A stretch of 64,000 nucleotides of DNA from Bacteroidota bacterium. Its GTDB lineage: Bacteria > Bacteroidota > Bacteroidia > UKL13-3. Under the pieces are notes generated by a model, which worked only from the letters and a program-made list of their open reading frames with translations, did no database searches and was not told the origin of the DNA. A program made the translations under genes and the position numbers. Below, in pieces: positions 144 to 33,750 of the stretch (the stretch's first letter is position 1; each line of letters starts with the position of its first letter). The stretch lies in NCBI GenBank assembly GCA_027484685.1, contig JAIXSO010000048.1, positions 8,477 to 72,476 of the forward strand. Reading direction: 5' to 3'.

Positions 144-269
144 TTCTAATTGTTTTTAACAAAAGTAAACAATGCACCAGATATTTCATTTAATAAAACA
201 ATAACTTTTAATAGAATAGCTGTAAATTGATTAAACTTTCTGTTATTTTGCTAATAAACCAAAAATACA

Positions 270-641
270 ATGAAAGCATTTTACACCATACTACTTTTAA
301 CCCTTTCAAATACCTTTATGACCTTTGCTTGGTATGGGCATTTACAATTTAGCAAAATAGAGTGGCTAAAAAATACTGGATTAATTGGTGTTATATTAAT
401 AAGTTGGTTAATAGCTTTGGCTGAATATGCCTTAATGGTTCCAGCAAATAAAATTGGTTACAAAGAAAATGGTGGTCCATTTAATATGTTTGAGCTAAAA
501 ACCATTCAAGAGGTGATTTCGCTTACTGTATTTGTACTCATCAATTATTTTGTTTTTAAATCGGACAAATTAGCTTGGAATCACTTACTTGGCTTTGCTT
601 TAATAGTATTAGCTGTTTTTGTGGTTTTTAAAAAGTGGTAG
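270..641 (+). CDS. DMT-superfamily small membrane protein (DUF486-like)
   Basis: 123 aa with four predicted hydrophobic helices. The N-terminus LSNTFMTFAWYGHL and overall size match the DUF486/DMT family as I recall it. Confidence 0.7.
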   Translation: MKAFYTILLLTLSNTFMTFAWYGHLQFSKIEWLKNTGLIGVILISWLIALAEYALMVPANKIGYKENGGPFNMFELKTIQEVISLTVFVLINYFVFKSDKLAWNHLLGFALIVLAVFVVFKKW

Positions 642-650
642 TTTTTTAAG

Positions 651-750
651 CAGCTGGCAGCTAGCTTCTGGCCTTTAAACAAATTATAGTAATAATCTTG
701 TAGCTTTGTAATCTCTAAATCTTCAAATCAAAAATCTTTAAATTAGATAC
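651..750. repeat. composite word-repeat leader: CTGGC-type block (651..674) followed by an AATCTCTAAATC / AAATCAAAAATC block ending at the SDR start codon
   Basis: cagctggcagctagcttctggcc ... gtaatctctaaatcttcaaatcaaaaatctttaaattagatac|ATG. The same two word blocks, in the same order relative to a start codon, recur at 53973..54112 on the minus strand. Confidence 0.7.
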
Positions 751-1452
751 ATGAATTTACAAAATAAAATAGCCGTTGTTACGGGTGTTAGCAAAGGAAT
801 TGGCAAAGCTATTTGCGAACAATTATTAGCAAATGGCGCAACTGTATTTGGCTTAGGTCGAAATAATAACGATATTTCAAATTCAAATTACAATTTTATC
901 CATTGCGATGTACGCAGTTTCGATTCTGTGCAAAATGCTTTCAATACAATATTTGCAAAAACCAACCAAACCATTGATATTCTAATAAACAATGCAGGCT
1001 TAGGTTATTTTGGGTTTTTGGAAGATATGCCAATAGAACAATTTCATGAAATGCAAGAAACTAACTTAAATGGTATTTTTTATTGCTGTAAAATGGCATT
1101 GCCAAAAATGAAAGAAAAACAAATTGGCCATATCATCAATATTGCATCAACTGCTGCATTAGAAGGAATGGCACAAGTAGTTGGATATTCGGCTAGTAAA
1201 TGGGCAGTGAAAGGTTTTAGCGAGTCGCTTTTTCGCGAAGTGCGCGATTTCAAAATAAAAGTAACTTGTATTTATCCGGGTGCAGTAAAAACCGATTTTT
1301 TCAGAAATAGTCCGGGCGTAAAACCTCACGATTATATGCTAATGCCCGAAGATGTGGCAGCTAATTTAATTTTTGCATTACAAATGCCTGATAATTTTCA
1401 TACTGTAAATCTTGAAATAAGACCATTGCAACCAAAAGGACCTAAAAAATAA
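751..1452 (+). CDS. short-chain dehydrogenase/reductase (SDR) family oxidoreductase
   Basis: N-terminal TGVSKGIGKA Rossmann motif, NNAG, and the catalytic YSASKWA (YxxxK) motif. Confidence 0.9.
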   Translation: MNLQNKIAVVTGVSKGIGKAICEQLLANGATVFGLGRNNNDISNSNYNFIHCDVRSFDSVQNAFNTIFAKTNQTIDILINNAGLGYFGFLEDMPIEQFHEMQETNLNGIFYCCKMALPKMKEKQIGHIINIASTAALEGMAQVVGYSASKWAVKGFSESLFREVRDFKIKVTCIYPGAVKTDFFRNSPGVKPHDYMLMPEDVAANLIFALQMPDNFHTVNLEIRPLQPKGPKK

Positions 1453-1580
1453 TTAGCTCGAAAACCTTTATTATTAGGGCATCTTCAACTCCTCTTGAAA
1501 AAATGTGCAACATTAATTAAAAATAAATAGGCTAATATTTTGTTAAGCATTATTTTTACCGCAAAAATCAAACATAAAAT

Positions 1581-3770
1581 ATGCCAACTTTACGTTTCAA
1601 CGCTTTAAAAACTGCCCTCAGCAGAAATCCAGTTCTTACCAAAGCCCCATCTGAAAAAGTATCAGATTTTTACAACAGCAATGTATTTAACGACAGTGCA
1701 ATGAAAAACTTTTTAAGCAAAGAAGCTTACGAAGCAGTTTCAAGAGCTGTAAAAATGGGTGAAAAAATTGATCGTAGCCATGCTGATGCAGTAGCTTCGG
1801 GAATGAAAAACTGGGCAATGAGCCGTGGAGTAACGCATTATACCCATTGGTTTCAGCCATTAACGGGTGCTACAGCCGAAAAACATGACGCCTTTTTTGA
1901 ACCTACCGAGGATGGTCGCTCAATGGAAAAGTTTTCAGGTGGCGCCTTGGTTCAGCAAGAACCAGATGCAAGTAGTTTTCCAAACGGAGGTATTAGAAAT
2001 ACTTTTGAAGCGCGTGGTTACACCGCTTGGGATCCTTCATCTCCAGCATTTATAATGGAAGAAAATAACGGTAAAACTTTATGTATTCCTACCATTTTTG
2101 TTTCATACACAGGCGAAGCATTAGATTTCAAAGCACCTTTATTAAAAGCATTACATGCTGTAGAAAACTCAGTAGTAGCCGTTTGTTCTGAATATTTCGA
2201 CAAAAATGTTAGCAAAGCATCAGCTAGTTTAGGTATAGAGCAAGAATATTTTTTAATTGACGAAGCTATGTTTTATGCTCGTCCTGATTTAATGTTAACC
2301 GGCCGTACGTTATTAGGCCATGCGCCTGAAAAAGGACAACAATTAGAAGATCATTACTTTGGTTCAATTCCTCCAAGAATCCACGATTTTATGGTTGATT
2401 TTGAAACCGAAGCATACAAATTAGGTATTCCATTAAAAACCCGTCATAATGAGGTGGCTCCTGGGCAATTTGAATGTGCTCCAAATTTTGAAGAGGCTAA
2501 TTTAGCAGTTGACCACAATCAATTGTTAATGGATTTAATGGAAAAGGTGAGCCAACGCCATGGTTTAAAAGTTTTATTACACGAAAAACCTTTTGCTGGT
2601 GTTAATGGAAGCGGAAAACACAATAATTGGAGTTTAATTACCAATACAGGTGTAAATTTATTAGCTCCTACCAAAAATCCTGAAACCAATTTACAGTTCC
2701 TTACTTTTTTTGTTAACGTAATTAAAGCTGTAAATGATAATGCCGATTTATTACGCGCATCAATTGCCACTGCAAGCAACGACCACCGTTTAGGTGCAAA
2801 CGAAGCTCCACCAGCAATTATGAGTATTTTTATTGGTAGCCAAATGACTAACGTGTTAGATTCAATTTTAAACGATAAATCGAGCGCTAAGGTTAATACC
2901 AAATCAAAACAAGCTATCAATGTTATCAAAATTCCTGACATTTTATTAGATAATACCGATAGAAACCGTACTTCGCCATTTGCCTTTACTGGAAATAAAT
3001 TTGAATTTAGAGCTGTAGGTTCAAGCGCTAATTGTGCTAATGCAATGATTGTATTAAATACAGTTATGGCAGATCAATTAAACAAATTTAAAGCTGAAGT
3101 TGATGCCTTAATTAAAAAAGGTAAGAAAAAAGAAGAAGCAATTTTAAGCACTTTAAAAGCTTACTACAAAGCATCTAAAAATATTTTATTTGAAGGAAAT
3201 GGTTATAGTGATGAGTGGGTTAAAGAAGCAGCAAAACGTGGCTTATCAAATGTAAAAACTACACCAGAAGCATTGAATGCTTATGTTTCAAAACAATCGG
3301 CTGATTTATTTACTAGAAATAATATTTTTAGCAAAATAGAATTAGACGCTCGTTATGAAATTATGCAAGAATTGTATGTTAAAAAAATTGATATTGAGGC
3401 AAAAACATTATCTCAATTGGCTACATCGCATGTAATTCCGGCAGCTGTAGAATACCAAAGTAAATTGGCTACCAATGTACAAGCTTTAAAAGGGGCAGGA
3501 TTAAGCAAAGCTAGCTACGAAACACAGTTAAAAACAATCGAAACTATTTCTAAACATATCAAAACTATTAGTGATAATGTTGAAAAAATAATTACTGAAA
3601 CCGAAAAAGCACATCACGCTACCAATACACATAAAGCAGCAGTTGCATTATGTCATAAAGTGAAACCTTTATTTGATCATGTTCGCTCTTCAAGCGATGC
3701 TTTAGAGTTTATGGTAGATGATACTTTATGGCAATTACCTAAGTACAGAGAAATGCTATTTATTAAATAA
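1581..3770 (+). CDS. glnN: glutamine synthetase type III
   Basis: 729 aa, the characteristic GSIII length. The N-terminus (FNALKTA..., VTHYTHWFQPLTG) and the catalytic region (NEVAPGQFE, KPFAGVNGSGKHNNWS) match GSIII as recalled. Confidence 0.9.
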   Translation: MPTLRFNALKTALSRNPVLTKAPSEKVSDFYNSNVFNDSAMKNFLSKEAYEAVSRAVKMGEKIDRSHADAVASGMKNWAMSRGVTHYTHWFQPLTGATAEKHDAFFEPTEDGRSMEKFSGGALVQQEPDASSFPNGGIRNTFEARGYTAWDPSSPAFIMEENNGKTLCIPTIFVSYTGEALDFKAPLLKALHAVENSVVAVCSEYFDKNVSKASASLGIEQEYFLIDEAMFYARPDLMLTGRTLLGHAPEKGQQLEDHYFGSIPPRIHDFMVDFETEAYKLGIPLKTRHNEVAPGQFECAPNFEEANLAVDHNQLLMDLMEKVSQRHGLKVLLHEKPFAGVNGSGKHNNWSLITNTGVNLLAPTKNPETNLQFLTFFVNVIKAVNDNADLLRASIATASNDHRLGANEAPPAIMSIFIGSQMTNVLDSILNDKSSAKVNTKSKQAINVIKIPDILLDNTDRNRTSPFAFTGNKFEFRAVGSSANCANAMIVLNTVMADQLNKFKAEVDALIKKGKKKEEAILSTLKAYYKASKNILFEGNGYSDEWVKEAAKRGLSNVKTTPEALNAYVSKQSADLFTRNNIFSKIELDARYEIMQELYVKKIDIEAKTLSQLATSHVIPAAVEYQSKLATNVQALKGAGLSKASYETQLKTIETISKHIKTISDNVEKIITETEKAHHATNTHKAAVALCHKVKPLFDHVRSSSDALEFMVDDTLWQLPKYREMLFIK

Positions 3771-3796
3771 TTTTTTCGAATTTTATGCATTTTAAA

Positions 3797-3833
3797 ACAG
3801 CCATTCAATACCAATTTGAATGGCTGTTTTATT
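3797..3833 (+). terminator. rho-independent terminator after glnN
   Basis: Perfect 12-bp stem acagccattcaa / ttgaatggctgt with a 7-nt loop, followed by a T-rich tail (tttattt). Confidence 0.8.
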
Positions 3834-3952
3834 TAAGAGTGCTCATATATAGACAATTAAAAAAACAAAAGTTCTAAAAAAAAACATTGTTTAATACGCT
3901 AAAAAAATTAAAATTGCGTTTGTACTAAATCAAACGCAAAAAGTATTTACAC

Positions 3953-6064
3953 ATGAAACAAAATTACATGATAAAATTAACTGGATTTGTATTAATATTA
4001 TCTGCCTTATTATATGCTTGTAAGCCCGGGGCAAGCATTGGAGATGCACGAAAAGATTTTAAAGATTTAAAATATGCTCAAGCTGCTGAAAAATACAAAA
4101 AAGTTTATGGCATTACCAAAGACAAGGAAATAAAAAAAGAAGCAGCATTTTATGCAGCAGAATGCTACCGCTTGTCGAACAACTGGACAACAGCAGAAAG
4201 CTGGTACACCAAAGCAGTTCAAGTTGACCCAACTAATGCTGAGGCAAAATACCGCCAAATTCAAGCTTTAAAGTATTCCGAAAAATATGTTGAATCAATT
4301 ACAGAAGCCAATAAATACAAAAAAACGGTTGGTTCTGACCCTAAAATTGATTTAGAAGATTGCGGAAGTACAAACGCTCAAAAATGGAAATCAGAAAAAA
4401 CACGTTTTGTAGTTGAAAATGTAGCTAAACTTAACACTAAATACAGTGATTTTGCCACTATGTGGTACAGAAAAGACCAATTGATGTTTTCTAGCGATAG
4501 ATTAGAAGTTGGAGTAAGTGGTAAAGATAAATATGGTTGGTTTAATAATGGCTATTGCGATATTTATACTACTACCTTAAAATTAAACAAAAAGAATAAA
4601 GAAACTATTGAGAATTATAGTCCACCTGTTTTGGTTGATAAAAAGAATGTGAACGGAAAATGGAACGATGGAACGGTTTGTTTTGATGCCAAATTCACTA
4701 CTATGTATTTTACTAAATGTAATTATGGTGAAAAAAATGATGGTAAGGGCGCACATTGCAGAATTTACGAATCAAAATTAAATGGCACAGAATGGAGTGT
4801 ACCAATACCTCTTCCTTTCAGTACCGATTCATTTGATTGTGGTCAACCCTTTTTAAGCAAAGATGGAACTACGCTTTATTTCTCTAGTAACATGCCTGGT
4901 AGTACTGCAAAACCGGTAACAAGTGCTGAAAATCCTGAAGGGTTAGAATTAAGTAAAGATTTATACAGTGTAAGTTACAGTAAAAGAGGTAATGCTTGGG
5001 GCGATCCTGTAAATTTAGGTCCTACTGTAAATACTGATGGTGACGAAGGTTTCCCTTTCCAACACGAAGACGGAACATTATACTTTGCATCAAACGGCCG
5101 TTGCGGCATGGGTGGATTTGATATTTTCTACACCAAAGGTCAAGGTACTGATTGGAGTGATCCTATTAACATGAAAGCACCTATTAATTCAGGTGGTGAT
5201 GACTTTGCAATTATTTTTTCAAAAGATAAAGAAAGTGGTTTTTTCTCTTCAAATAGAATGAACGGAAAAGGTAGTGATGATATTTATAGATTTACCAAAA
5301 CGCCATTGGTATTTACTTTAAGCGGTGTTGCTCGTGATGAAAAAGATAATTCAATCTTAAAAAATACAACTATTCAATTTACTAACAGTTCAGATACAGT
5401 AAAATTGGTTGTTAAAACAGATGCCGCAGGTTCTTATAGAATAACCCTAAGAGCAGGAACAGATTACGACTTTTATGGTTCTAAACCATTGTATTACGAT
5501 AGTAAAATTTATGGAGCTACTACCAAAAACTTAGAAGTTTCAACAGATTTAGTTCAAGATTTAATATTAAAACCATTTGGAGACGATGTTTTTGATGTAA
5601 AAGGTATATTCTATGGATTAGATAGTGCTGATATCAGACCTCGCTCGGCAGAAATTCTAGACTCTTTGGTAATTGTTATGAATAAATATCCAATGTTAAA
5701 ATTTGAATTGGGTTCTCATACCGATTGTAGAGCTGATTCATTATACAATATCAAGTTATCACAAAGACGCGCTGATTCATGTGTTGGTTATTTAATTCGT
5801 CACGGTGTTGATTCAATGAGATTAGTATCGAGAGGTTATGGAGAAAATGAATTAGCGGTTCCAAAATGTGCTTGTGAAGGACCAAACGAAAGAATTGAAG
5901 GACAGAAATGTACTGAAGCCGAACATCAATTAAATAGAAGGACTACAGTAAAAGTTATAGATAAAAACTTTATTGGCATAACCAAACCGAAAAGTAATGA
6001 ACCTGAAGCTCCAAAAAACATTCCAGGTCAAAGAGTTAGACCAGGCACCCAACCAAGGAGGTGA
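3953..6064 (+). CDS. OmpA-family outer-membrane lipoprotein with TPR, PD40 (TolB-like) repeats, carboxypeptidase-regulatory-like domain and C-terminal OmpA/MotB peptidoglycan-binding domain
   Basis: Signal peptide with lipobox-like LLYAC. Repeated S.DG.TLYF.S motifs. C-terminal OmpA_C motifs FELGSHTDCRADSLYNIKLSQRRADS and GYGENE. Confidence 0.85.
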   Translation: MKQNYMIKLTGFVLILSALLYACKPGASIGDARKDFKDLKYAQAAEKYKKVYGITKDKEIKKEAAFYAAECYRLSNNWTTAESWYTKAVQVDPTNAEAKYRQIQALKYSEKYVESITEANKYKKTVGSDPKIDLEDCGSTNAQKWKSEKTRFVVENVAKLNTKYSDFATMWYRKDQLMFSSDRLEVGVSGKDKYGWFNNGYCDIYTTTLKLNKKNKETIENYSPPVLVDKKNVNGKWNDGTVCFDAKFTTMYFTKCNYGEKNDGKGAHCRIYESKLNGTEWSVPIPLPFSTDSFDCGQPFLSKDGTTLYFSSNMPGSTAKPVTSAENPEGLELSKDLYSVSYSKRGNAWGDPVNLGPTVNTDGDEGFPFQHEDGTLYFASNGRCGMGGFDIFYTKGQGTDWSDPINMKAPINSGGDDFAIIFSKDKESGFFSSNRMNGKGSDDIYRFTKTPLVFTLSGVARDEKDNSILKNTTIQFTNSSDTVKLVVKTDAAGSYRITLRAGTDYDFYGSKPLYYDSKIYGATTKNLEVSTDLVQDLILKPFGDDVFDVKGIFYGLDSADIRPRSAEILDSLVIVMNKYPMLKFELGSHTDCRADSLYNIKLSQRRADSCVGYLIRHGVDSMRLVSRGYGENELAVPKCACEGPNERIEGQKCTEAEHQLNRRTTVKVIDKNFIGITKPKSNEPEAPKNIPGQRVRPGTQPRR

Positions 6065-6078
6065 TGAATAAAACTAAA

Positions 6079-6111
6079 AGCCCGATAAATTAAATTTATC
6101 GGGCTTTTTTA
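6079..6111 (+). terminator. rho-independent terminator after the OmpA-family gene
   Basis: Stem agcccgataaat / atttatcgggct (12 bp), loop taa, then TTTTTT. Confidence 0.85.
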
Positions 6112-6129
6112 TGGATTATAATAGTTCAT

Positions 6130-6160
6130 AAAAAAAGCCATACAAAATTGTATGGCTTTT
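6130..6160 (-). terminator. rho-independent terminator after the HIT/greA genes (minus strand)
   Basis: Stem agccataca / tgtatggct. On the minus strand it is followed by a T7 run (complement of aaaaaaa at 6130..6136). Confidence 0.8.
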
Positions 6161-6176
6161 ATTTAATAATAGAAAA

Positions 6177-6569
6177 CTAAATATACTTAGCTATTGAATC
6201 TGCTATTTCTTGCATTTCCTCTTTGGAAAATGAAAGCTTTTTTCTTTCAAAATTCATATCATTTACACCATTTATAGGCATTAAATGAATATGAGTGTGC
6301 GGAACTTCTAAGCCAATAACAGTTACTCCAACTCTTTCACAAGGAATAGCCTTTTTAAGGGCTATAGCAACTTTTTTTGCAAACAAATGTAAGTTTGTAT
6401 ACAATTCGTCATCCAAATCAAATATATAATCTATTTCCACCTTAGGAAGTACCAGTAAATGACCTTTTGTTAGAGGACTAATATCTAAAAAAGCTAAAAA
6501 GCTATCATCTTCGGCAACTTTATAACAAGGAATTTCTCCTGCTATAATTCGAGAAAATATACTTGCCAT
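6177..6569 (-). CDS. HIT (histidine triad) family protein
   Basis: Histidine triad HTHIHLMP near the C-terminus. 130 aa, typical HIT size and N-terminus (IFSRIIAGEIP). Confidence 0.9.
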   Translation of the reverse strand: MASIFSRIIAGEIPCYKVAEDDSFLAFLDISPLTKGHLLVLPKVEIDYIFDLDDELYTNLHLFAKKVAIALKKAIPCERVGVTVIGLEVPHTHIHLMPINGVNDMNFERKKLSFSKEEMQEIADSIAKYI

Positions 6570-6574
6570 ATTGC

Positions 6575-7075
6575 TTAACTAAATGAAATAGTTAAAATTT
6601 CTAATTTAATAGTACCTGCAGGTGCGGCAATTTCAACTATATCACCCACTTTTTTACCCATTAAACCAGCACCAATTGGCGACTTTACTGAAATTTTTCC
6701 AATTTTAAAATCTGCTTCGTTTTCAGAAACAACAATATAAGTAAATTCTTTCTTTACATTATGGTTTAAAACTAATACTTTACTTAATAGCATTACTTTG
6801 CTGTTATCTAGCTTAGTTTCATCAATTATTCTACTTATTGCTAACAAAGATTCAATTTGAGAAATTTTAGTTTCTAAATGTCCTTGGTCTTCTTTTGCTG
6901 CATGGTATTCAGCATTTTCACTTAAATCACCTTTATCTCTGGCATCGGCAATTTGCTTCGAAATAAATGGGCGTTGAACAAATTTTAAATCGTGTAATTC
7001 TTTTTGCAATTTCTCGAAGCCATCTTTAGATAAATAATTAAGAGATGGTGAAGCCGATAAAGTTTTTTTTGCCAT
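6575..7075 (-). CDS. greA: transcription elongation factor GreA
   Basis: Coiled-coil N-domain with ARDKGDLSENAEYHAAKE and a C-terminal FKBP-like domain (SVKSPIGAGLMGKKVGD). Confidence 0.93.
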   Translation of the reverse strand: MAKKTLSASPSLNYLSKDGFEKLQKELHDLKFVQRPFISKQIADARDKGDLSENAEYHAAKEDQGHLETKISQIESLLAISRIIDETKLDNSKVMLLSKVLVLNHNVKKEFTYIVVSENEADFKIGKISVKSPIGAGLMGKKVGDIVEIAAPAGTIKLEILTISFS

Positions 7076-7099
7076 TTTTTATAAAAATTTTGATACAAT

Positions 7100-7142
7100 A
7101 TAAAACAAAAAGAAACGTCCGGATTGATAATCCGAACGTTTC
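7100..7142 (-). terminator. rho-independent terminator after the PorV/PorQ-like gene (minus strand)
   Basis: Stem gaaacgtccggatt / aatccgaacgtttc with one C/A mismatch. On the minus strand it is followed by ctttttgtttta. Confidence 0.7.
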
Positions 7143-7166
7143 AATATAATAAACAAATATATAAAA

Positions 7167-8261
7167 TTATTTGTTATTTCCTAAAGTAAGTTTAAGTCCA
7201 ATACTGTGTATTCCGTTAAAAATAACAGTTGGTTGATAAGCATAATCAATTGCTAAATCAGTAGTATTACTAACAGGTATTCCAAAACCAACACCAAAGC
7301 TTATGCCATATTGGGGATTCTTATATTCAGTGTCACTAAAGTTACCTTCTTGATGCGCATAACCAGTTCTTAACATAAACATATTCTTGTAAGCGTACTC
7401 TGTTCCAATAGCAACAATGTTTGATGAAAATGCATTATAGTTAAAATTAGCATTTAAGGTTAATTTGTGATCATATGTTTCTTCACCTTTATCTAATCTA
7501 AAATCGTAAGCTGCACCAATATTAGCTAAAGCTGGCATATTAAATGGCTGAGAACCAAATAAAGTTTTTCTTGTAGCGCCCGTTGATGTTACTGTTGTAT
7601 TAGCAGTTAAACCAGTACCTTGATATGCAAAATCAGGACCTAAATTACGAACAGCGATACCAAATCTGAAATCTTGTTTTTTAATTTTTTTAGCAGCATT
7701 TAAAGATGTTTGATATTGAACACCAGCATCTAAAGTAACTCCACTAGCATTAACACTTGAAGTACCTTCGCTAATGTATCTAACCATTAAACCACCTGTA
7801 ATTGAATTAGAGAAGGTTTTTGAATAAGCCAAACCTAAATTCAAAATTTGAGTAGTGTAAGTTCCTAAGGTCATATCAGGAGCTTCGGTTGTGGTAATTG
7901 GAATATTTCCAATATCCCAATATGTTAAAGCCATACCTAATACGCCACCACTTCCATTTTCGCCAAGAGCTTGAGCAATACCAAAATTATTAAGGTAAAT
8001 ATCAGTTCCAACTAAGTAACGGGTTTGTGACGCTTGAATTTCCATTTTCTTTACATAAGCCAAACCGCCTATGTTTAAGTAATATGACTCTAAACCTCTA
8101 GCAGAAGCAGTATTTGAACCGCCTAAACCAACACCACGAACATACGGATTAACCAAAAGCTGTGTTGCTCCAGCACCACCGGCTCTATCAGGATTTCCTG
8201 CATTTACAGTAGCCAATAATCCAAAACAAGCTACCAAACTTTGTAAAATATACTTCTTCAT
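7167..8261 (-). CDS. PorV/PorQ-family outer-membrane beta-barrel protein (T9SS-associated, FadL-like)
   Basis: Signal peptide, then AGATQLLVNPYVRGVGLGGSNTASARGLESYYLNIGGLAY. This matches the family's N-terminal pattern as I recall it (aGa.fL.i..gaRa.gmGga...a.y.NpAGLa). Alternating beta-strand pattern throughout. It is the last gene of a three-gene T9SS-linked cluster. Confidence 0.7.
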   Translation of the reverse strand: MKKYILQSLVACFGLLATVNAGNPDRAGGAGATQLLVNPYVRGVGLGGSNTASARGLESYYLNIGGLAYVKKMEIQASQTRYLVGTDIYLNNFGIAQALGENGSGGVLGMALTYWDIGNIPITTTEAPDMTLGTYTTQILNLGLAYSKTFSNSITGGLMVRYISEGTSSVNASGVTLDAGVQYQTSLNAAKKIKKQDFRFGIAVRNLGPDFAYQGTGLTANTTVTSTGATRKTLFGSQPFNMPALANIGAAYDFRLDKGEETYDHKLTLNANFNYNAFSSNIVAIGTEYAYKNMFMLRTGYAHQEGNFSDTEYKNPQYGISFGVGFGIPVSNTTDLAIDYAYQPTVIFNGIHSIGLKLTLGNNK

Positions 8262-8291
8262 ACGAGTAATTTATTTTATAATTTTTTTTAG

Positions 8292-8324
8292 AATGCACTT
8301 TAATAACAACTATTAAAGTGCATT
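8292..8324 (-). promoter_or_regulatory. perfect 13-bp stem-loop in the 72-nt spacer between the T9SS cargo gene and the PorV/PorQ-like gene
   Basis: aatgcactttaat (8292..8304) / attaaagtgcatt (8312..8324), loop aacaact. On the coding (minus) strand an A-run follows, not a T-run, so it is not a canonical terminator. Confidence 0.6.
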
Positions 8325-8333
8325 ATTATTTTT

Positions 8334-11300
8334 TTAAAACGAATCGAAATCAGCTGGACGCATTACACCAAACCATTTGATAATTCTTTCTCCAATGCCT
8401 GGAGCATCAATATGAACTAGATAAACACCACTTGATATAGGAACATTTGCATCATTGCGTAAATCCCATTCAATATATGTTCTAGTATCATCATCTTTTG
8501 GAATTCTTCTTACCAAGAAACCGCTTTGAGTATAGATTGAAACTACACATTTTTTTGGAACGTTTATAATTTTTACTCTATTATCCAAAGCATTGCCAGG
8601 ATCTTCATATCCACTATATGCATAATATGGATTTGGCGAAATATTAACCATATCTAAAGCCTTATTACCAGCAGTTTTATCGTTAATAACAGGAGCAATG
8701 CTATTCGTATTGAATTCGTACAAAGGTTGACCAGCATTTGCTAATGGTGTATCAACATTATTGATGTAACGAGCATATGGACGTTTTACTCTAATTTTTA
8801 CCGTTGCATCATTTGGAACTAAACCATCAGCCATACTTCTTAAGCGAGAAGTTTGAGCTAAAATTGGCATTGTAACCCACATAAATTGAGATAAGAAATA
8901 ACGTTTTTGTAAGGTATTAGGTTCATCAGAAGGATTGGTTACATTTAATAATTGTTTATAAGTAACACCTTCATCATACTTAGGGCCTCTAAATAATACA
9001 TTATTACCCACTTTAAGTTCTTTAGCACCCATAACATACACGTGGTGTTTTCCTCCAAATGCTGGTACACCATTACTCGAATTACCATCAAACCAGTTTA
9101 CAGTAGGATTCCAAATCATATCGTTACCATTTTCACCAGGTAATGAAGAGTCTTCACCAAAAACAATGTTCAATCTTTCACCTGTTTCTACATTGATAGC
9201 ATATCCTGGGAACCAACTTAAACCAAAGCTACCAGACTCAGGTTTACCATTTTTATCTACCGAAGCAGATGCTCTGATATTGCCTTTAGAAACATTGCCA
9301 ATATTTTGTTCTTTGTTTTCACCCATTTCTAATACAATACAACGAGTCCATTTTGATTTATCATTTGTAAATACAACATCAACACCTTGTAAACTTGAAA
9401 TAGGATTATCTTCAGAAATTTGATTAGTATTTGGAGTTAAACTAATTCCGGGACCATAAGAAGCTGGGGTTGAACCACTTTTTACAGCCTTGGCGCATAA
9501 CTCAAATGGAGCCCAAGTTCCACCTAATATATTACTATATTGTTTTCTAGGATCAATCGCCACTTTATTACCAGCAATTGATCTAAAGAAATCATGATCC
9601 GTTAAATTAGTAAATTCGGGAGTTCCAGTATTACCAGATCTTATCCAATTAAATGGTGCTAATGCTACAGCACCGTCAGGAATACCGCTTAACCATCTAT
9701 TAGTAGGATCGGCAAAAGTTATAGATGCATCTATGTAACCATTAGATAAATCATTATTATTATTGGGGTCACCAGGAGCAGCTACTTGATTAACAGTAAC
9801 TGATAAACCTAACTCATCAAAAATTTGTTCATTTGCCATCATTAAGTTTCTAGTTCCGGCATATACTTTACCAGTAGCAGTGTTAATTATTTTCCAAGAA
9901 GAAGTAGCTCTAGCTAATGAATCTGAAATCCTTGGGTTCGTTGAAGAATCAGTAATAAAAAGTTTAAAATTTGCTAAAGGAACTTTAAATGGATTGATAA
10001 CCTTAATTGTTACAGGTCCTTGACCTTCAATATAACTTGGCCTTTTAACATAATAAGGTGCAATTAATGCTGAATCAATCGATGCTTTTGACAAGTTAAT
10101 AAAATTTCCTCCATTACCAATACCTTCAATTCTGGTTAAAGCTGGCCCACTTGTGAAACCTGAATTTAATTGAGTACCTTGCTGATGACCATATGATAAA
10201 TGTGGAGTAGCAGTTAAGATAACTGGTCTAGAACCTGATAAATATTGCGTAGCTTCTTGAGGACAATTAGTTACAGCAGCATAAGGAATAATTAAGTAGT
10301 GGTAATTTTTATAATTTACCAAAGTTTGGTCAGATTCAACAGAGAATGCATCTTTAGTTATTTGGAAAGAATGCTTGATTCCTTTGTCCTCACCACTTAC
10401 CATTATCCTTTTAACATTGCCTAAATCTGCATCATTAACAGTATTAACAATAAATCCTATACCATCTTGAATGTCACATTGACCAACTAATCTTATTTGA
10501 TCTCTATCAGAGAAATCACTTGGAGTAGAAGGTACCTTTAATTGGAATATTTGATATCCTTGGAATTTATAGTCAGTAGAATCAGCGCATAATCCTGCAA
10601 CTTTAGCTTTAAAATTTTCTGGTCTTTCAGAGTTTACAATATTTAGAATTAACTCACGATTTAACTCAGTAATTTTTACTGCATTATCGTCAAATTCAGG
10701 ACCTCTTAAAATTCTGAAGTTGTTCTTAAATAATACAGTTGCTTTATCACTAGCTTCTTTTAATAAATTAAAAGAACCAGTAGCACCGCCAGTAGTGGCT
10801 CTAGCCCAAACAACACCGATTGTGACTCTATTTACAGCACCAGGTAATAATTTGAATGAACCAGCAGTTTGTAAGAAACGTCTGTCAGCGGGCGTATTTC
10901 CGGCAATTCTTTCTGTCCATAAAGCTCTTCCTGCAGGGTCAGTAGCGCCAGGGAACATATAACTTGAGGTGTCAGAACCTCCTCTGCCATTGCCTCCGTA
11001 TGTAATTGGTTGTCCATCTCTCCAACGTCCGTTTAAGTAATTCCAAAAATCGTTTGGTCTTGCAGGATTTCCTTGTTGTGATTGGTTATTATCGTAATAA
11101 ACAAATTTTGTTAATCCTATTTGCTTTTGATTTTCGTCAAGGGGACCTTCAAAAAAATTAACCCCCACACTAGGAGGATTTAAACCATAACCTAAAATAC
11201 CTTCATCGTTATCATCACCATTATAACAGATTCCAAGATTTCTCTTTACATCACACTCAACATAATCATCAGAATAATTACCTAAATCTGGATCTACCCA

Positions 11301-12173
11301 TTGACCAAAAATACAGCTATCTATAATTTCTGTTCCACGATTGGTTATAGTAGTTCTGTAAAAAGTCATGTTGTTAACTTCATCATTAGTAGCAAAACCA
11401 AATGCTTGTAATTTAAACTCTAAATTCAAAGGTAAACCTTGAGTTTCAGAGTGAATATTACCTTTATCATTGTAACAGATAAACATCATTTGATCAGGAA
11501 TTGAAGCTAAACCAGCTTCACCTTGATTAAAAGTTGGGTAATCTCCGTCTTCATAATTGTAATTTCCATCATTGTTCACATCAAAGAATGGAGCTAGAAA
11601 TTTAGTCTCGCCTGGACCGCCATTTCCTGGCCAACTCATAATATCTGATGCTACTGCTTCTCCATCAATGAATTTAGAAATTTCAGTACGTGTTACTGTC
11701 CAAATTTTATCAAATTCTTTACATCTGGTAGATGTTACAGAAGCAGAACCATCAATTTGTAATGGTCCTGGAAAAAAGTCATTACCATTTTGACGGTAAG
11801 TTTGCGCAGCTAAACGTAAATTACCTTGGGTTATTCCACCAATCCAAAGTGCACCAGAGAATAATGAATTCTTGGCAACTTGACCAGTTTGAACTTTAGG
11901 AATTTCGTAACGTGCATTACTTAAATTCCACCACATGTCACCACCATTTAATATAATGGTTCTAACATTATTAATCGACAATTCTTTTTGTGCTGTTGCA
12001 GGAGCACAACCTGCGCCCATTTTTGCTAATGGATTAGATTTTATATTTGGTAAAACATTAGAGGAGTTTCCTGCTAATTTGCCGATACCAATATTTTCGC
12101 GGGCTTGTAAGTTTAAAAAACCTATAGCACTTAATACGAGTGTTGCTGTTTTTATATATTTAAAGTTTAACAT
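8334..12173 (-). CDS. very large secreted protein with T9SS type-A C-terminal sorting domain; function unknown
   Basis: 1279 aa with an N-terminal signal peptide. The last ~100 aa (ISPNPYYAY...VVSIYTQSGFLVRRI...WDLRNDANVPISSGVYLVHIDA) fit the Por-secretion CTD pattern. DxNxDG-like calcium-loop motif (FDVNNDGNYNYEDGDYP). No catalytic motif recognised. Confidence 0.7.
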   Translation of the reverse strand: MLNFKYIKTATLVLSAIGFLNLQARENIGIGKLAGNSSNVLPNIKSNPLAKMGAGCAPATAQKELSINNVRTIILNGGDMWWNLSNARYEIPKVQTGQVAKNSLFSGALWIGGITQGNLRLAAQTYRQNGNDFFPGPLQIDGSASVTSTRCKEFDKIWTVTRTEISKFIDGEAVASDIMSWPGNGGPGETKFLAPFFDVNNDGNYNYEDGDYPTFNQGEAGLASIPDQMMFICYNDKGNIHSETQGLPLNLEFKLQAFGFATNDEVNNMTFYRTTITNRGTEIIDSCIFGQWVDPDLGNYSDDYVECDVKRNLGICYNGDDNDEGILGYGLNPPSVGVNFFEGPLDENQKQIGLTKFVYYDNNQSQQGNPARPNDFWNYLNGRWRDGQPITYGGNGRGGSDTSSYMFPGATDPAGRALWTERIAGNTPADRRFLQTAGSFKLLPGAVNRVTIGVVWARATTGGATGSFNLLKEASDKATVLFKNNFRILRGPEFDDNAVKITELNRELILNIVNSERPENFKAKVAGLCADSTDYKFQGYQIFQLKVPSTPSDFSDRDQIRLVGQCDIQDGIGFIVNTVNDADLGNVKRIMVSGEDKGIKHSFQITKDAFSVESDQTLVNYKNYHYLIIPYAAVTNCPQEATQYLSGSRPVILTATPHLSYGHQQGTQLNSGFTSGPALTRIEGIGNGGNFINLSKASIDSALIAPYYVKRPSYIEGQGPVTIKVINPFKVPLANFKLFITDSSTNPRISDSLARATSSWKIINTATGKVYAGTRNLMMANEQIFDELGLSVTVNQVAAPGDPNNNNDLSNGYIDASITFADPTNRWLSGIPDGAVALAPFNWIRSGNTGTPEFTNLTDHDFFRSIAGNKVAIDPRKQYSNILGGTWAPFELCAKAVKSGSTPASYGPGISLTPNTNQISEDNPISSLQGVDVVFTNDKSKWTRCIVLEMGENKEQNIGNVSKGNIRASASVDKNGKPESGSFGLSWFPGYAINVETGERLNIVFGEDSSLPGENGNDMIWNPTVNWFDGNSSNGVPAFGGKHHVYVMGAKELKVGNNVLFRGPKYDEGVTYKQLLNVTNPSDEPNTLQKRYFLSQFMWVTMPILAQTSRLRSMADGLVPNDATVKIRVKRPYARYINNVDTPLANAGQPLYEFNTNSIAPVINDKTAGNKALDMVNISPNPYYAYSGYEDPGNALDNRVKIINVPKKCVVSIYTQSGFLVRRIPKDDDTRTYIEWDLRNDANVPISSGVYLVHIDAPGIGERIIKWFGVMRPADFDSF

Positions 12174-12191
12174 AAAATTATTTTTTTTATT

Positions 12192-15100
12192 TTAAAACTG
12201 AACTGATACTCCAATACGGGTTAAACGTGGTAACAAAAATCTATCAGGATTAACCATCCTTGTATTATATAGGTCAACAAATGACTGTGCATTGGTTGCA
12301 GTTCTAATTTGATCAGCTGCAAAAGGAGAAGTTAAGTAACCATCGTTGTAAGCACTTCCTGTATATCTAAACACTCCAGTTACATTGGCAGCATTTAATA
12401 AATTAGTTACTGTTAAGAAAACACGCATTCTGTATTCTTTTACACTTGCACCAGCTCGCTTATTTTTAATAGTGAAGTTTTTATCTACGTTTAAATCAAC
12501 GTTAAATTGTGCTGGTAAATTAGCCCCATTAGGAGTTCCTTTTATTGGACTTCTAACTGCAGCACCGCTTTGAACACCATCTGGAGTAGAAATTAAATTC
12601 TGTGTGTAAGGACGACCTGAGTATGCAGAAAAAATAAAGTTGAAACCAGCATTCTCTAGAATTTTCTTACCTCCAACTACAGGACCATCATATTTTTTAC
12701 CATCTTTATAATGGAAATCAAAATTGGTTTTGAAAGTGTGGCGTGTATCAAAATCTAAAGGGAAAATGGTTCTAGTATTGGGTAAGCCTGCTTGAATTAA
12801 AGCAGCACTTGATTGTACGTTTGAACCAGTACCATCAGCAAATTGTAATTGATAATTAGCATCAACATTTACATTACCCATATCAATTAATTTATATTCC
12901 AAACCTACTGATTTAACTGTTGAGAAATCTATATTACCAACAGTTGTGTAAGTATTTGGCCAAGCTTGAATATAGCTAAATAACTGTGTCATATTTCTAT
13001 TTTCACGATATGAAGCTATAATACCAATTGCTGAGTTTTTACCAATTTGTTGACGGAAACCAATTTCATAATCGGTAACTTGGGTCATTTTCAAATCAGG
13101 ATTTGCTATAATTCCAGTTAATCGGTTTGACAAAAAGAAATAATCATCAATTTGTGCCACGTTACTACTAGGACGTTGTGTTAAAATATCGTAAGTACCA
13201 TAAAACTGCGATGAAGTACTGATAGGGAAAGAGAACCATACGCGAGGCAATACTTTAACATCTGGCACATAATCTTTAAACGACTCAGCAGTAGGAACCT
13301 TTGAATTATTAGCATCTGCTACTAAAGGAATATTTTGACTAGTACCAGCAGCACGTTGAATAGCAGCAGGATCAGAAACTGGATTACCATTTCTATCATA
13401 CCATTTATTACCATCGCGGTAACCAGCTATACCATAGCTATTTGCCGAAAAATTATCAGTAGTAATATATACCTTCCAATTATCTTGCACTGTACTAGGC
13501 ATAGCATTGATTGTTTCTGGTGAAATTTTTGCCGATGCACCTTGTTTAACCTCACCAGCAGTTAAAATTGGAACCATTGAATATGGATCACGTAATACTA
13601 ACTGGTTTGCATCAAACCTTTCAACACGGACACCAACACGTAAAATCAAATCTTTAAATTGGAATTTATCTTGAATCCAAGCTGCAGCATAAATTGGTTG
13701 GTACGCAGGTAAAATTCTGTTTTTGAAAAACTCATTAATTCCTGGTTTTCCCGAAACTGCATTACCTAAATGATCGTAACCAAAATATCCAACAAAAGAA
13801 TTACCGTTATTCAATAACTCATTAGCAGAGAACATATTTAAGTTATAAGTACCAGGAGCATATGAATTAATATCTAAGAAAGTTTGTTCGGTTATAGGGT
13901 TACCATTATTATCGGTAGCGCCTTGGCTAATTAATTTTGCTCTTAAATTTTTATCAAACTCTGATTGATCAGCAGCATTGATTCTTCTATTGAAAGAAAT
14001 GGTATCTTGAAAAACACCATTAGCATCAAACTTAGCAATTCCAATTGAATCTAAACCTGAAAATTGACGATTTGCTAATAATGGCATCAATTGCCATAAA
14101 TTGCTTGCTGATAAATTGTAGCTACGTTGGAAACGTTGTTCGTATGTTAAACCAAATTGTAAATTATGTTTAGCTTTTAAATTTCTTCTAGGTGCTATTG
14201 AGGCATTAGATTCTAAATAAACAATGTAGTTTTCAAATAAATTTTTAGAATAACCTGCTTGCACATCGGCTAAGTTACCCCACATACCTGAATAAATTGA
14301 TTGAGGATCATCTCCATTTTGCAAGGCACCTAAACCTCTTAATTGATTGAAATTATTAAAGTTATTAGCACCATAATAATTTAAGAATGCTTGAGTATAA
14401 TTTCCTCTAAGTGTATTGAAATCAGCTTTTTGAAAAGTAAATGCTGTATCTCTAAATCCAGTTTGACGAGTATAGCCTGTTAAGTACATTTTTCTACCAT
14501 CATTTAAAGTAATAGTATCAGCTGGTTGTCCAAAAGTTTTTCTAACTGCAGTATATGCAGGAGCATTGTATGTTTTAAATGTTCCAACGTAACCATATTT
14601 AAAGAAATCTTTTCCATGATTAGCATCAAAAGTTTCTGAATAATTACGCTCATAACTAACACGAACAGTATAATAAGCATCCGAAATTTTTACACCTTTA
14701 GTTAAAGTAGATTCTAACCTTGCTTTAGCAGTATCCTCTTTTTTATTAAACATTTGGGTAAATTGTAAATAAATTAACCCATTATAACCTTCTGTTCTTG
14801 AATTATTGGCAGAATTCAATAATGAGTGGAAACTATTCCAATTATTTCTGGCAAAAAACTGTGCCTGGTAGCCCAATTTAAAATTCATATTATTACTAGG
14901 TTGATAATTAAAGTTACCACTAGTATTAATATTGTAAGAAGAAACATTTTGACGGTAGTCAACTTTTTCCAAATCACCTTTGGTTAAAAATTCAGCCGCA
15001 GGAACAAGGGTACCCAATGTATTTGGACGAACAGGAGTTTCTTCAATTTCTTTCATTTTGGCATCCTTCACTTTATAAACATCAACCGCAGGTAAACCTG

Positions 15101-15959
15101 GGTCTAAGGCGTAAAAGCCTCTAACGGAGTTAGTAAATCCAATTAATACCTTTTCTCTTCCATCAACACCTTTATCTTTTAACATAATTGGCCCCGAAAC
15201 AAAAGTGGTAAACTCATTTACATGCGAATTATCCAAGTAACCATAAAATGGACTAGCAGTTCTGTATTCGAAAAAACGCACCCATTGTTTAGTTGGGGCT
15301 TTAGTGGTAGCACTGATAGCTCCTCCAGTAAAATCTCCATAAGAAGCAGGAGTACCACCAGTGATAACCTCTAAATTTTCAATGGCATTAGCAGGTAAAT
15401 TAATACCTTGAACACGCACACCATCAATATAATAAGCAGTGTTTTCAGCACGCGAACCACGAATATTTGGAGCAGCTCCGCCACGCGAATCAACACCACG
15501 TGAAATACCTGCAATTGCATTTAAATTTTGAGTTCCTTGCTTATTTATGTTTTTAAAGTTGTTCTGATTGGGATCATCTTTATCAATCAACTGTACTTTA
15601 TTTCCAAGTACTTCAACTTCTTTCAAATTCTTATTTGACATTGAAAAAGTCCTTGTGGTAATTTTATTATCACCTTTTACTGGAACATCCTGCATAACTA
15701 TTTTTTGATAACCAACCAAAGAAACAGAAATATTGTACAAACCGGCTGGAATAGCGGTAAACTCAAACTCACCGTCTTTGTCAGTGTACTTTGATTTTTT
15801 AATACCCCCACCACCTTCAATAATTACAAGCACAAATTCAATTGGCTTTTTTGTGTTATCATCAATAACTTTTCCTTCAAGCACACCCAGGTTAGATTGG
15901 GCTGTGGCCAAAGCTGAAAGGCCTATTAAGGCCGCTAATAATAAATATATCCTTCTCAT
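12192..15959 (-). CDS. TonB-dependent-receptor-like outer-membrane barrel with N-terminal carboxypeptidase-regulatory-like domain
   Basis: Signal peptide (ALATAQ). CarboxypepD_reg-like segment (LEGKVIDDNTKKPIEF...DGEFEFTAIPAGLYNISVSLVGYQ). Plug-like motifs (NIRGSRAENTAYYIDGVRV, LEVITGGTPASYGDFTGGAISATTK). C-terminal aromatic residue (VSVQF). It stops 18 nt before the next gene. Confidence 0.8.
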   Translation of the reverse strand: MRRIYLLLAALIGLSALATAQSNLGVLEGKVIDDNTKKPIEFVLVIIEGGGGIKKSKYTDKDGEFEFTAIPAGLYNISVSLVGYQKIVMQDVPVKGDNKITTRTFSMSNKNLKEVEVLGNKVQLIDKDDPNQNNFKNINKQGTQNLNAIAGISRGVDSRGGAAPNIRGSRAENTAYYIDGVRVQGINLPANAIENLEVITGGTPASYGDFTGGAISATTKAPTKQWVRFFEYRTASPFYGYLDNSHVNEFTTFVSGPIMLKDKGVDGREKVLIGFTNSVRGFYALDPGLPAVDVYKVKDAKMKEIEETPVRPNTLGTLVPAAEFLTKGDLEKVDYRQNVSSYNINTSGNFNYQPSNNMNFKLGYQAQFFARNNWNSFHSLLNSANNSRTEGYNGLIYLQFTQMFNKKEDTAKARLESTLTKGVKISDAYYTVRVSYERNYSETFDANHGKDFFKYGYVGTFKTYNAPAYTAVRKTFGQPADTITLNDGRKMYLTGYTRQTGFRDTAFTFQKADFNTLRGNYTQAFLNYYGANNFNNFNQLRGLGALQNGDDPQSIYSGMWGNLADVQAGYSKNLFENYIVYLESNASIAPRRNLKAKHNLQFGLTYEQRFQRSYNLSASNLWQLMPLLANRQFSGLDSIGIAKFDANGVFQDTISFNRRINAADQSEFDKNLRAKLISQGATDNNGNPITEQTFLDINSYAPGTYNLNMFSANELLNNGNSFVGYFGYDHLGNAVSGKPGINEFFKNRILPAYQPIYAAAWIQDKFQFKDLILRVGVRVERFDANQLVLRDPYSMVPILTAGEVKQGASAKISPETINAMPSTVQDNWKVYITTDNFSANSYGIAGYRDGNKWYDRNGNPVSDPAAIQRAAGTSQNIPLVADANNSKVPTAESFKDYVPDVKVLPRVWFSFPISTSSQFYGTYDILTQRPSSNVAQIDDYFFLSNRLTGIIANPDLKMTQVTDYEIGFRQQIGKNSAIGIIASYRENRNMTQLFSYIQAWPNTYTTVGNIDFSTVKSVGLEYKLIDMGNVNVDANYQLQFADGTGSNVQSSAALIQAGLPNTRTIFPLDFDTRHTFKTNFDFHYKDGKKYDGPVVGGKKILENAGFNFIFSAYSGRPYTQNLISTPDGVQSGAAVRSPIKGTPNGANLPAQFNVDLNVDKNFTIKNKRAGASVKEYRMRVFLTVTNLLNAANVTGVFRYTGSAYNDGYLTSPFAADQIRTATNAQSFVDLYNTRMVNPDRFLLPRLTRIGVSVQF

Positions 15960-16074: not shown

Positions 16075-17001
16075 TTATTTTAAGTCAGTTAATTTTAAGA
16101 GTATGGATTGCGCAATTTTTTCATAGCTCTCAAAAGTCCAACCGGCAATATGCGGTGATAAAACTACTTTTTTGTTGTTTATAAGGTAGTCAAAATCTTT
16201 TTGCTGCTGGTTGCTTAGGTTATTTATTTTTTCATTTTCCAATACATCAAAACAAGCTCCCTTTATTTTCATATTATTCAGATATTCAATTGTTTCAGGC
16301 ATATTTACCACCTCTCCACGGCACATATTTAATAGGTAAATATTTTTTTTAAATTGTGTAAAAAAACTTGCATTCACCCAATTTTTAGTTTCAGGTGTTA
16401 ATGGAACATGTAGCGATAAAATATCACTTTCTTCAAAAATTTGCTCCAAAGTTGCCTCTTGTGCATTTTGGTTAGAATAATTTTCCAAATATTTATCATA
16501 TGCCAAAATTTTCACATCAAAACCGGCTAATTTTCGGGCAAATGCTTTTCCTGTATTTCCAAAACCAATAATTCCTACCGTTTTTCCATTTAATTCATAG
16601 CCTCTGTTGCCTTCTCTATCCCAAATTTTATTTCTTACCTCAAAATCAGCTTTAGCTAAATTACGCATTAAACTTAAAAGCATGCCTAAAGTATGTTCAC
16701 CTACAGCATCGGCATTGGCTTGCCCAGCGTTAAAACAATAAATTCCTTTTTGATTGGCTAAATCCAAATCAATATTGTCTAATCCGCTGCCTGCTCGCGC
16801 AATAATTTTTAAATTTGGAGCAGCAGCAAAAATTTCTTTATCAATTAAAGTTTTGGTACGCACCACCAAAACCTCAAAAGGTGCAATTATTTGTAAAATT
16901 TCGCTTCTATTAATAGCAGGCAAATAAGTTACTTCATAACCAATTTTCTCTAATCCTTCTGTTAATAAACTACTTACATCGTCAATAATGAGTACTTTCA
17001 C
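16075..17001 (-). CDS. D-isomer-specific 2-hydroxyacid dehydrogenase family protein (phosphoglycerate dehydrogenase-like)
   Basis: NAD-binding GIIGFGNTGKAFARKL. Catalytic-domain layout with SPHIAGWT near the C-terminus. Confidence 0.85.
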   Translation of the reverse strand: MKVLIIDDVSSLLTEGLEKIGYEVTYLPAINRSEILQIIAPFEVLVVRTKTLIDKEIFAAAPNLKIIARAGSGLDNIDLDLANQKGIYCFNAGQANADAVGEHTLGMLLSLMRNLAKADFEVRNKIWDREGNRGYELNGKTVGIIGFGNTGKAFARKLAGFDVKILAYDKYLENYSNQNAQEATLEQIFEESDILSLHVPLTPETKNWVNASFFTQFKKNIYLLNMCRGEVVNMPETIEYLNNMKIKGACFDVLENEKINNLSNQQQKDFDYLINNKKVVLSPHIAGWTFESYEKIAQSILLKLTDLK

Positions 17002-32605: not shown

Positions 32606-32606
32606 T

Positions 32607-33695: not shown

Positions 33696-33750
33696 GAGGT
33701 TTTGACCAACCAATTCATAAAAAAATTTTAATTCATAAACAGTAAGTATA

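Follow-up and report, generated by a model that had tools for sequence, protein, structure and literature searches.

The locus described here raises the question of whether a TonB-dependent transporter, a large secreted protein and a small outer-membrane barrel that are encoded side by side also work as one system. We analyzed a stretch of 64,000 nt from contig JAIXSO010000048.1 of a Bacteroidota bacterium (the window in the following), in which three head-to-tail open reading frames occupy the minus strand. In transcription order, these are g1 (12192-15959; 1255 aa), coding for a predicted TonB-dependent transporter, g2 (8334-12173; 1279 aa), coding for a predicted secreted β-rich protein with a C-terminal sorting domain (CTD) resembling those of type IX secretion systems (T9SS), and g3 (7167-8261; 364 aa), coding for a predicted outer-membrane barrel of the PorV/PorQ family. 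The gaps are 18 nt between g1 and g2 and 72 nt between g2 and g3, and positions, strand and gaps are identical to those given in an initial annotation of the DNA. This had proposed that the g2 product is delivered by the T9SS and is held or operated at the cell surface by the two barrels. Our analysis indicates that g2 and g3 probably are related as cargo and anchor, while the full three-part model, with g2 exported by the T9SS, retained on g3 and working together with g1, appears quite possible to us without our calling it probable.

The PorV/PorQ signature noticed at the N-terminus of g3 was borne out by the NCBIfam model of the PorV/PorQ family (NF033709), on which g3 scored 143.1 bits (cut-off 90), with residues 32-358 aligned to profile positions 4-324 of 326. 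On the models for the individual orthologues, the scores stayed below the respective cut-offs, with 75.2 bits for PorV (NF033710; cut-off 250), 59.7 bits for PorQ (NF033711; cut-off 220) and 30.1 bits for PorV2 (NF052325; cut-off 325). All of the 21 g3 orthologues sampled down to 30% identity matched the family model, and even the best of them on the PorV and PorQ models (E-values of 7.3e-23 and 3.2e-22) remained far below the cut-offs of these models. The closest solved relative of the g3 family profile was PorV of Flavobacterium johnsoniae (6h3i_F; 5.2e-18), and g3 showed no match at E<=0.01 to TIGR03519, the model of the PorP/SprF barrel. Judged by these profile comparisons, g3 is a distinct paralogue of the PorV/PorQ family and not an orthologue of PorV, PorQ or PorV2. 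In three distant loci, the gene following g2 additionally codes for an OmpA-like domain. In locus L084 (12354-14138), it encodes a 594-aa protein whose PorV-family barrel (residues 35-368) is fused with an OmpA-like domain for peptidoglycan binding (residues 474-592). The product in locus L088 (11122-12630) has 502 aa, an OmpA domain and a faint match to PorP_SprF, and that in the P0255 contig is a 692-aa OmpA-domain protein. Because an OmpA-type peptidoglycan-binding domain would pin the barrel to the cell wall, these predicted domains argue for a static anchor and not for a free shuttle, by analogy with known complexes.

The CTD of g2 (residues ~1177-1269; 8367-8645, minus strand) is immunoglobulin (Ig)-like and closest to the CTDs of PorZ and PorU. 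In a set of 22 diverse CTDs of the g2 family, each one matched the NCBIfam models for the C-terminus of PorZ (best E-value 5.9e-11), for the type A CTD (TIGR04183; best 4.8e-7, with matches counted at E<1) and for the C-terminus of PorU (best 1.3e-6); the type B model TIGR04131 matched a single one of them with an E-value of 0.094. The copy from the window yielded E-values of 5.3e-5 with PorZ, 0.008 with PorU and 0.029 with TIGR04183, and did not match the Pfam model Por_Secre_tail (PF18962). Because its TIGR04183 score of 14.4 bits is below the curated cut-off of 23, the "clear" type A CTD initially ascribed to g2 is a feature of the family, but not of the window sequence. NCBI has given some g2 homologues the name "T9SS type A sorting domain-containing protein". 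Moreover, Lys1266 (in the motif KWFGV) is invariant in the 22 family CTDs, and a near-invariant lysine has been described for type A CTDs (PMC10994853). At the family level, the g2 CTD is thus type-A-like and PorZ/PorU-like as far as its sequence tells. Behind its last strand, g2 continues into a short tail, MRPADFDSF (residues 1271-1279; 8337-8363, minus strand). The consensus of this end, KWFGVMRPxD[LF]xx[FY]-COOH, is conserved family-wide to ~35% identity; the tail has no counterpart in PorZ, whose structure 5m11 ends before it, and does not show the β-signal pattern of outer-membrane proteins.

The passenger part of g2 in front of the CTD is not covered by any Pfam or NCBIfam model, neither in the window copy nor in 20 homologues, and nothing was found for it in the PDB with either the single sequence or the family profile. 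An AlphaFold2 model of residues 25-1190 reached a predicted local distance difference test score (pLDDT) of 81.9 and consisted almost entirely of β-structure. Comparing it to the PDB by Foldseek resulted in weak, partial matches to the β-sandwich domains of glycoside hydrolases and phosphorylases (GH116-, GH94- and GH15-type enzymes) with template modelling (TM) scores <=0.25, and a Foldseek search against viral structure models returned no usable match. We also searched g2 for an HExxH motif, which is absent. All of this fits the initial statement that g2 contains no catalytic or adhesin domain that can be named. The invariant alignment columns identify residues ~56-500 (10674-12008, minus strand) as the most conserved passenger region, which contains many invariant Asp, Asn, Gly and Trp residues as well as three invariant Cys and shows a windowed conservation of 0.57-0.91, exceeding 0.7 over most of its length. 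Residues 985-1024 are likewise extremely conserved. Only one passenger of the family was seen to have a recognizable domain: a 1687-aa variant of g2 (locus L090, 7001-12064) contains an inserted region that matched Pfam PSII_BNR (BNR/Asp-box propeller).

An identity of g2 with either PorU or PorZ was considered and rejected. The PorU model NF033707 matched just at profile positions 997-1075 with 13.8 bits (cut-off 420), which corresponds to the last ~80 residues of g2 and not to the end-to-end alignment that had been named as an outcome speaking against the initial proposal. There was no Peptidase_C25 match, and the PorU structure 6za2, though contained in the PDB library, was absent among the Foldseek matches listed. 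Similarly, the PorZ model NF052228 was matched just in its last ~80 profile positions, with 15.9-21.9 bits (cut-off 260). The PorZ structure 5m11, which is also part of the library, was absent among the Foldseek matches listed, and the passenger profile found no PorZ in the PDB.

For g1, the signal peptide, the carboxypeptidase-regulatory-like N-domain, the plug and the terminal Phe listed initially were all recovered by sequence reading and Pfam. The Bacteroidota-style N-terminal extension (residues 28-117; 15609-15878, minus strand) matched the Pfam CarboxypepD_reg models PF13715 (54.3 bits) and PF13620 (45.6 bits), and the family profile of g1 matched the solved N-terminal domain of a SusC protein in the PDB (9hfj). 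Just N-terminal to the plug, we read a motif LKEVEVLG (residues 112-119; 15603-15626, minus strand) that resembles a TonB box. Most of 21 g1 homologues inspected from a 63-row alignment contain the pattern L-x-E/D-V-x-I/V, followed by K-PLID, and we regard the motif as the putative TonB box of g1. The core of the plug domain (residues 141-213; 15321-15539, minus strand) was recognized by Pfam Plug (PF07715; 34.8 bits, cut-off 23.9); in the PDB, the family profile matched the plug domains of PirA, Fiu and PfeA. The Pfam barrel model did not match the window copy of g1, although homologues of full length with 35-38% identity do contain TonB_dep_Rec. When residues 110-1255 were modelled by AlphaFold2 (pLDDT 86.6, predicted TM score 0.83), the result contained a 22-strand barrel, and a Foldseek search with it against the PDB gave 162 matches at E<1e-3. 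All 50 matches listed are TonB-dependent transporters, including YddB (1.2e-24), PirA, PhuR, FhuA, FusA, XusA and BtuB, with target-normalized TM scores mostly of 0.6-0.76. By its modelled fold of plug and 22-strand barrel, g1 is therefore a genuine TonB-dependent transporter. It is ~450 residues longer than the matched transporters, and the model places the excess in the extracellular loops. Because g1 did not match any NCBIfam model at E<=0.01, it is devoid of a SusC/RagA signature, provided that the library holds one. A SusC/SusD polysaccharide utilization locus was rejected as an identity of the trio: no SusC/RagA model matched g1, the gene downstream of it had no SusD match, and just the N-terminal extension is shared.

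To place the trio in a wider context, we scanned 185,579 species genomes (one for each GTDB species), obtained at least 549 confirmed relatives of g2 and compared the gene order in the best 80 of these loci. The genes g1, g2 and g3 occur in the same order and on the same strand in 71 of them, the exceptions being contig ends and one locus with a lone second g2 copy (L051). The median gaps across related loci are 21 nt between g1 and g2 and 37 nt between g2 and g3, and the identities of the three proteins to those of the window co-vary across loci (r = 0.95 and 0.97). Eight further loci with only 33-39% identity in g2 also contain the trio (L081, L084 with a split g1, L085, L086/87, L088, L089, L090 and the P0255 contig), so that the order is kept in at least 75 loci overall, down to ~33% identity. 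When two g1 homologues at 35-36% identity were picked on the basis of g1 alone, g2 and g3 followed in both contigs. The trio is thus a conserved arrangement and not a chance one. A case of duplication was seen in a complete chromosome from a metagenome-assembled genome (MAG; OZ244977.1, locus L053), where two tandem g1 paralogues precede g2 and g3 (264-7915) and a lone g2 paralogue is present elsewhere. Three features lead us to interpret the genes as an operon, namely their tight spacing, the single terminator described below and the fact that two outer-membrane barrels and a T9SS-type cargo make functional sense together.

We propose the following mechanism for the three gene products. According to sequence reading, all of them start with a signal peptide that lacks a lipobox at its cleavage site; g2 would use its signal peptide to cross the inner membrane via Sec. 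Its Ig-like CTD would then target it to the T9SS translocon, from which it would be extracted by g3 as a dedicated barrel of the PorV/PorQ family. Because PorU and PorZ are T9SS substrates with uncleaved CTDs that are retained on PorV and PorQ, respectively (PMC10202324, PMC12365241), and because type B cargo remains attached to a private carrier encoded by the next gene (PMC12618676, PMC12635249), we expect the CTD of g2 to remain uncleaved as well, tethering the protein to g3 at the cell surface. The permanent hold of PorQ on PorZ and of PorV on PorU also is a better precedent than the shuttling of cargo by PorV that was invoked at the outset. The conserved C-terminal tail possibly locks g2 on g3, and in some lineages the barrel itself may be pinned to peptidoglycan via its fused OmpA-like domain. 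The tethered g2 would finally work together with g1, the conserved N-terminal passenger region capturing or processing a substrate which g1 would import with energy provided via TonB. The genes and models identify the components, whereas T9SS dependence, retention of the CTD on g3, an interaction with g1, the transport direction and any substrate are inferred from them. In its strictest version, which we advance only tentatively, the model has g2 exported by the T9SS as a non-lipoprotein and locked by CTD and tail on a PorV paralogue of its own, where it joins g1 in a stable complex of all three proteins and acts as the substrate-capturing or -processing lid of the transporter. The initial proposal is partly supported by these results: g2 is not a PorU by end-to-end alignment, the trio is syntenic in related genomes and g3 scores above the PorV/PorQ threshold. 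With regard to the complex itself, it stays a proposal.

The surroundings of the trio are those of an ordinary chromosome of ~33% GC. A strong intrinsic terminator on the minus strand (7102-7142), consisting of a 14-bp stem with 6 GC pairs followed by the T-run TTTTTGTTTT, lies 3' of g3 and closes the operon. It had been called the only canonical terminator of the three genes, which still applies, but the spacer between g2 and g3 is not featureless, since it contains an AT-rich hairpin of 14 bp (8292-8324; not assigned to a strand) without a T-run on the coding strand. Hairpins are also present in the g2-g3 spacers of ~25 related loci (L011, L021, L026-L034, L046, L067 and others), and some of these copies are followed by a T-run. 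Because the hairpin sequences are unrelated between loci, the structure appears to be conserved and not the sequence, and it may serve as a partial terminator or as an RNA-stability element setting the ratio of g2 to g3. No RNA element or riboswitch was found by an Rfam search of the whole window, including the region upstream of g1, and neither a SusD gene nor a regulator gene nor a riboswitch was found near the trio; nothing there points to another kind of system. In a scan for sigma-70 promoters, for which the model is ill-suited to Bacteroidota promoters, matches were no more frequent than in shuffled sequence.

A gene for a 2-hydroxyacid or phosphoglycerate dehydrogenase-like protein (16075-17001) lies upstream of the trio, and greA and a HIT-family gene (6177-7075) lie downstream. 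In most loci, greA and the HIT-family gene follow and the dehydrogenase gene precedes the trio, even at ~35% protein identity, which is unusually deep for an outer-membrane operon. A PorE-like gene on the plus strand (3953-6064), coding for a 703-aa OmpA-domain protein, is convergent with the block of the trio, greA and the HIT-family gene and lies ~1.1 kb past the end of g3. It scored 380 bits on the PorE model and 406 bits on that of the CHU_0125 family (cut-offs 600 and 620). We did not count it as a fourth component, because it accompanies the trio in no other relatives than the three closest ones (L003, L004 and L006). The window also contains a gene for a DabA-type inorganic carbon transporter subunit (60881-63379, plus strand) and an operon for a CusA/CzcA-type resistance-nodulation-division efflux system with OEP, HlyD-like adaptor and pump (31358-36852, plus strand), both of which are ordinary and unrelated to the trio.

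Several observations have to be held against a joint function of the three proteins. The housekeeping neighbours are nearly as syntenic as the trio itself, with greA present in 71, the HIT-family gene in 63 and the dehydrogenase gene in 54 of the 80 loci, and in several distant loci as well; therefore, conserved order alone is no proof of shared function, and it partly reflects vertical inheritance. Lone g2 paralogues are known from locus L051 and from the metagenome contig L083, which has no barrel genes near g2. The coupling of g1 to g2 or g3 is something that we infer, and because Pfam, NCBIfam, PDB and Foldseek searches revealed no recognizable binding or catalytic domain in the passenger, its role beside the transporter is pure conjecture. 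The CTD of the window copy stays below the type A cut-off, as described above, and the better scores of g2 CTDs on the PorZ and PorU models may partly be an artefact of how these models were constructed. Moreover, the only T9SS-related gene seen in the window outside the trio is the PorE-like gene, which scores below cut-off. In one alternative, g2 and g3 represent a cargo and its dedicated anchor, for example a static adhesin or a surface enzyme, while g1 works independently as a transporter and has no more in common with them than a transcript or an ancient gene neighbourhood that is inherited vertically. The near-equal synteny of the housekeeping genes makes linkage weak evidence for coupling, pairs of cargo and carrier that do their work in the absence of a transporter are known (PMC12618676), and the tandem g1 copies of locus L053 point in the same direction. 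We nevertheless consider an independent g1 unlikely: the gap between g1 and g2 is very short (18 nt in the window, median 21 nt) and contains no terminator, g2 and g3 again follow g1 in the two contigs with g1 relatives of ~35% identity, and the ~450 extra residues in the extracellular loops of g1 would fit a docking surface.

The trio might also be an accessory of the T9SS or of envelope biogenesis, a lineage-specific analogue of PorZ-PorQ, with a glycolipid or polysaccharide being handled by g2 and with g1 as conduit or partner. This would agree with the best score of the g2 CTD being that against PorZ, with the position of the trio amid core housekeeping genes in the loci examined, where it was seen twice in just one genome, and with the PorE-like gene 1.1 kb away. 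However, the passenger of g2 is unlike PorZ in sequence and fold, g1 shows the full architecture of an importer with a TonB-box-like motif, plug and 22-strand barrel, and the PorE-like neighbour is kept in the closest relatives only, which makes such an accessory role quite improbable in our opinion. A further conceivable function of g1 is that of a TonB-dependent exporter of g2, with the CTD-like domain being nothing but an Ig-like module. Oar, which reportedly is needed for the secretion of PopC in Myxococcus, would be the model for this, as Oar-type proteins share the layout of g1 with a carboxypeptidase-regulatory N-domain, plug and barrel, and the window CTD scores below the type A cut-off. 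We regard this as very improbable, since a folded β-rich protein of 1200 aa cannot get through a 22-strand barrel with a plug, a gene for a PorV-family barrel follows right after g2, and both the invariant lysine and the family-wide matches to T9SS CTD models argue for export by the T9SS. Finally, the gene order, in which a PorV-family barrel comes after a large CTD protein, and the similar length of ~1280 aa recall an ordinary porU-porV pair, which would then lie beside an unrelated receptor gene. This is refuted by the missing Peptidase_C25 match, the restriction of the PorU match to the CTD (13.8 vs. 420 bits) and the absence of 6za2 among the fold matches listed, and the score of g3 on the PorV model (75 bits vs. 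a cut-off of 250) points the same way, leaving a negligible chance for such a pair. We retain T9SS export of g2, retention on g3 and cooperation with g1 as our working model.

The g2 family is large, with more than 3000 homologues in a database clustered at 90% identity and, in an exhaustive search, 7223 representatives at 50% identity (E<1e-3), 2345 of them at E<1e-30. The best 80 of the at least 549 relatives from the genome scan are all MAGs and nearly all labelled as Bacteroidota or Bacteroidia, the labels of a few being evidently wrong. The hosts of the trio appear to be uncultured lineages, mostly from freshwater, and no cultured host was found in homologue searches, cluster look-ups or the scan of 185,579 genomes, which returned just MAG, metagenome or unnamed records. 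As no paper on the trio was found in the literature searched, the combination of a TonB-dependent transporter, a T9SS cargo and a PorV paralogue still appears to be undescribed, as it did initially. With 7223 representatives, no model for the passenger and an apparent confinement to uncultured, mostly freshwater lineages, the g2 family therefore represents a sizeable blind spot in outer-membrane biology.

Compared with known systems, it is not new in principle that a T9SS cargo is paired with a carrier or anchor barrel of its own. Cognate T9SS pairs have an established signature, namely a cargo gene with the gene of its carrier barrel directly behind it (PMC12618676). The PorZ-PorQ and PorU-PorV pairs of Porphyromonas gingivalis are similar in that their PorZ and PorU CTDs are those with which the g2 CTD reaches its best scores, and in that g3 belongs to the PorV/PorQ family. 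In contrast, the passenger of g2 is unrelated to those of PorU (a C25 peptidase) and PorZ (β-propellers), g3 is no orthologue of PorV or PorQ, g2 carries an additional conserved tail, and a TonB-dependent transporter is co-encoded; moreover, the CTD is retained in the P. gingivalis pairs, whereas retention of the g2 CTD is proposed by analogy. The type B pairs of F. johnsoniae (SprB-SprF and Fjoh_3952-3951-3950) share with g2-g3 the position of the carrier-barrel gene directly after the cargo gene, but the g2 CTD is type-A-like (with TIGR04131 matching in one of 22 cases) and g3 belongs to the PorV/PorQ and not to the PorP/SprF family. PorP/SprF-PorE complexes are static, with the OmpA-type PorE pinning them to peptidoglycan (PMC12618676), and the OmpA-carrying barrel genes after g2 in distant loci resemble these PorE-pinned type B complexes. 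According to the current view, type A CTDs are served by the general carrier PorV and private carriers exist for type B only (PMC12618676, PMC12635249). The novelty of the trio lies in a type-A-like CTD being paired with a PorV paralogue of its own, and in a TonB-dependent transporter as the fixed companion of both. The trio would represent a third family of pairs in which a retained CTD sits on a cognate PorV-like barrel, hard-wired to a transporter in this case; if this is true, type A-like CTDs can, like those of type B, have dedicated carriers beyond those of PorU and PorZ. The natural fusions of the barrel with OmpA domains offer a directly testable hypothesis of static anchoring.

The second group of relevant systems is that of SusC-SusD, BtuB-BtuG and XusA-XusB, where SusD, BtuG and XusB are the lipoprotein partners of the respective TonB-dependent transporters and play the part in extracellular capture or processing that we propose for g2. 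The trio resembles them by the N-terminal extension of g1 and by a large putative surface protein (g2) that is encoded directly downstream, and both XusA (9gbc) and BtuB of B. thetaiotaomicron (8bmx) are among the structural matches of g1. It differs from SusC-SusD by the missing NCBIfam match for g1 and by the absence of a SusD gene beside the trio, and the complex of the trio is a proposed one. Another difference from all three systems is that their partners are lipoproteins, whereas g2 has no lipobox and instead carries a T9SS-type CTD and is accompanied by its own anchor barrel. To our knowledge, the surface partners of TonB-dependent transporters in Bacteroidota are regarded as lipoproteins. 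The trio therefore suggests exceptions to two rules, the carriage of type A cargo by PorV only and the restriction of transporter partners to lipoproteins. If the model proposed here is true, the T9SS would also be a biogenesis route for nutrient-uptake machines, with the trio as an equivalent of SusCD and BtuBG that is built by this system.

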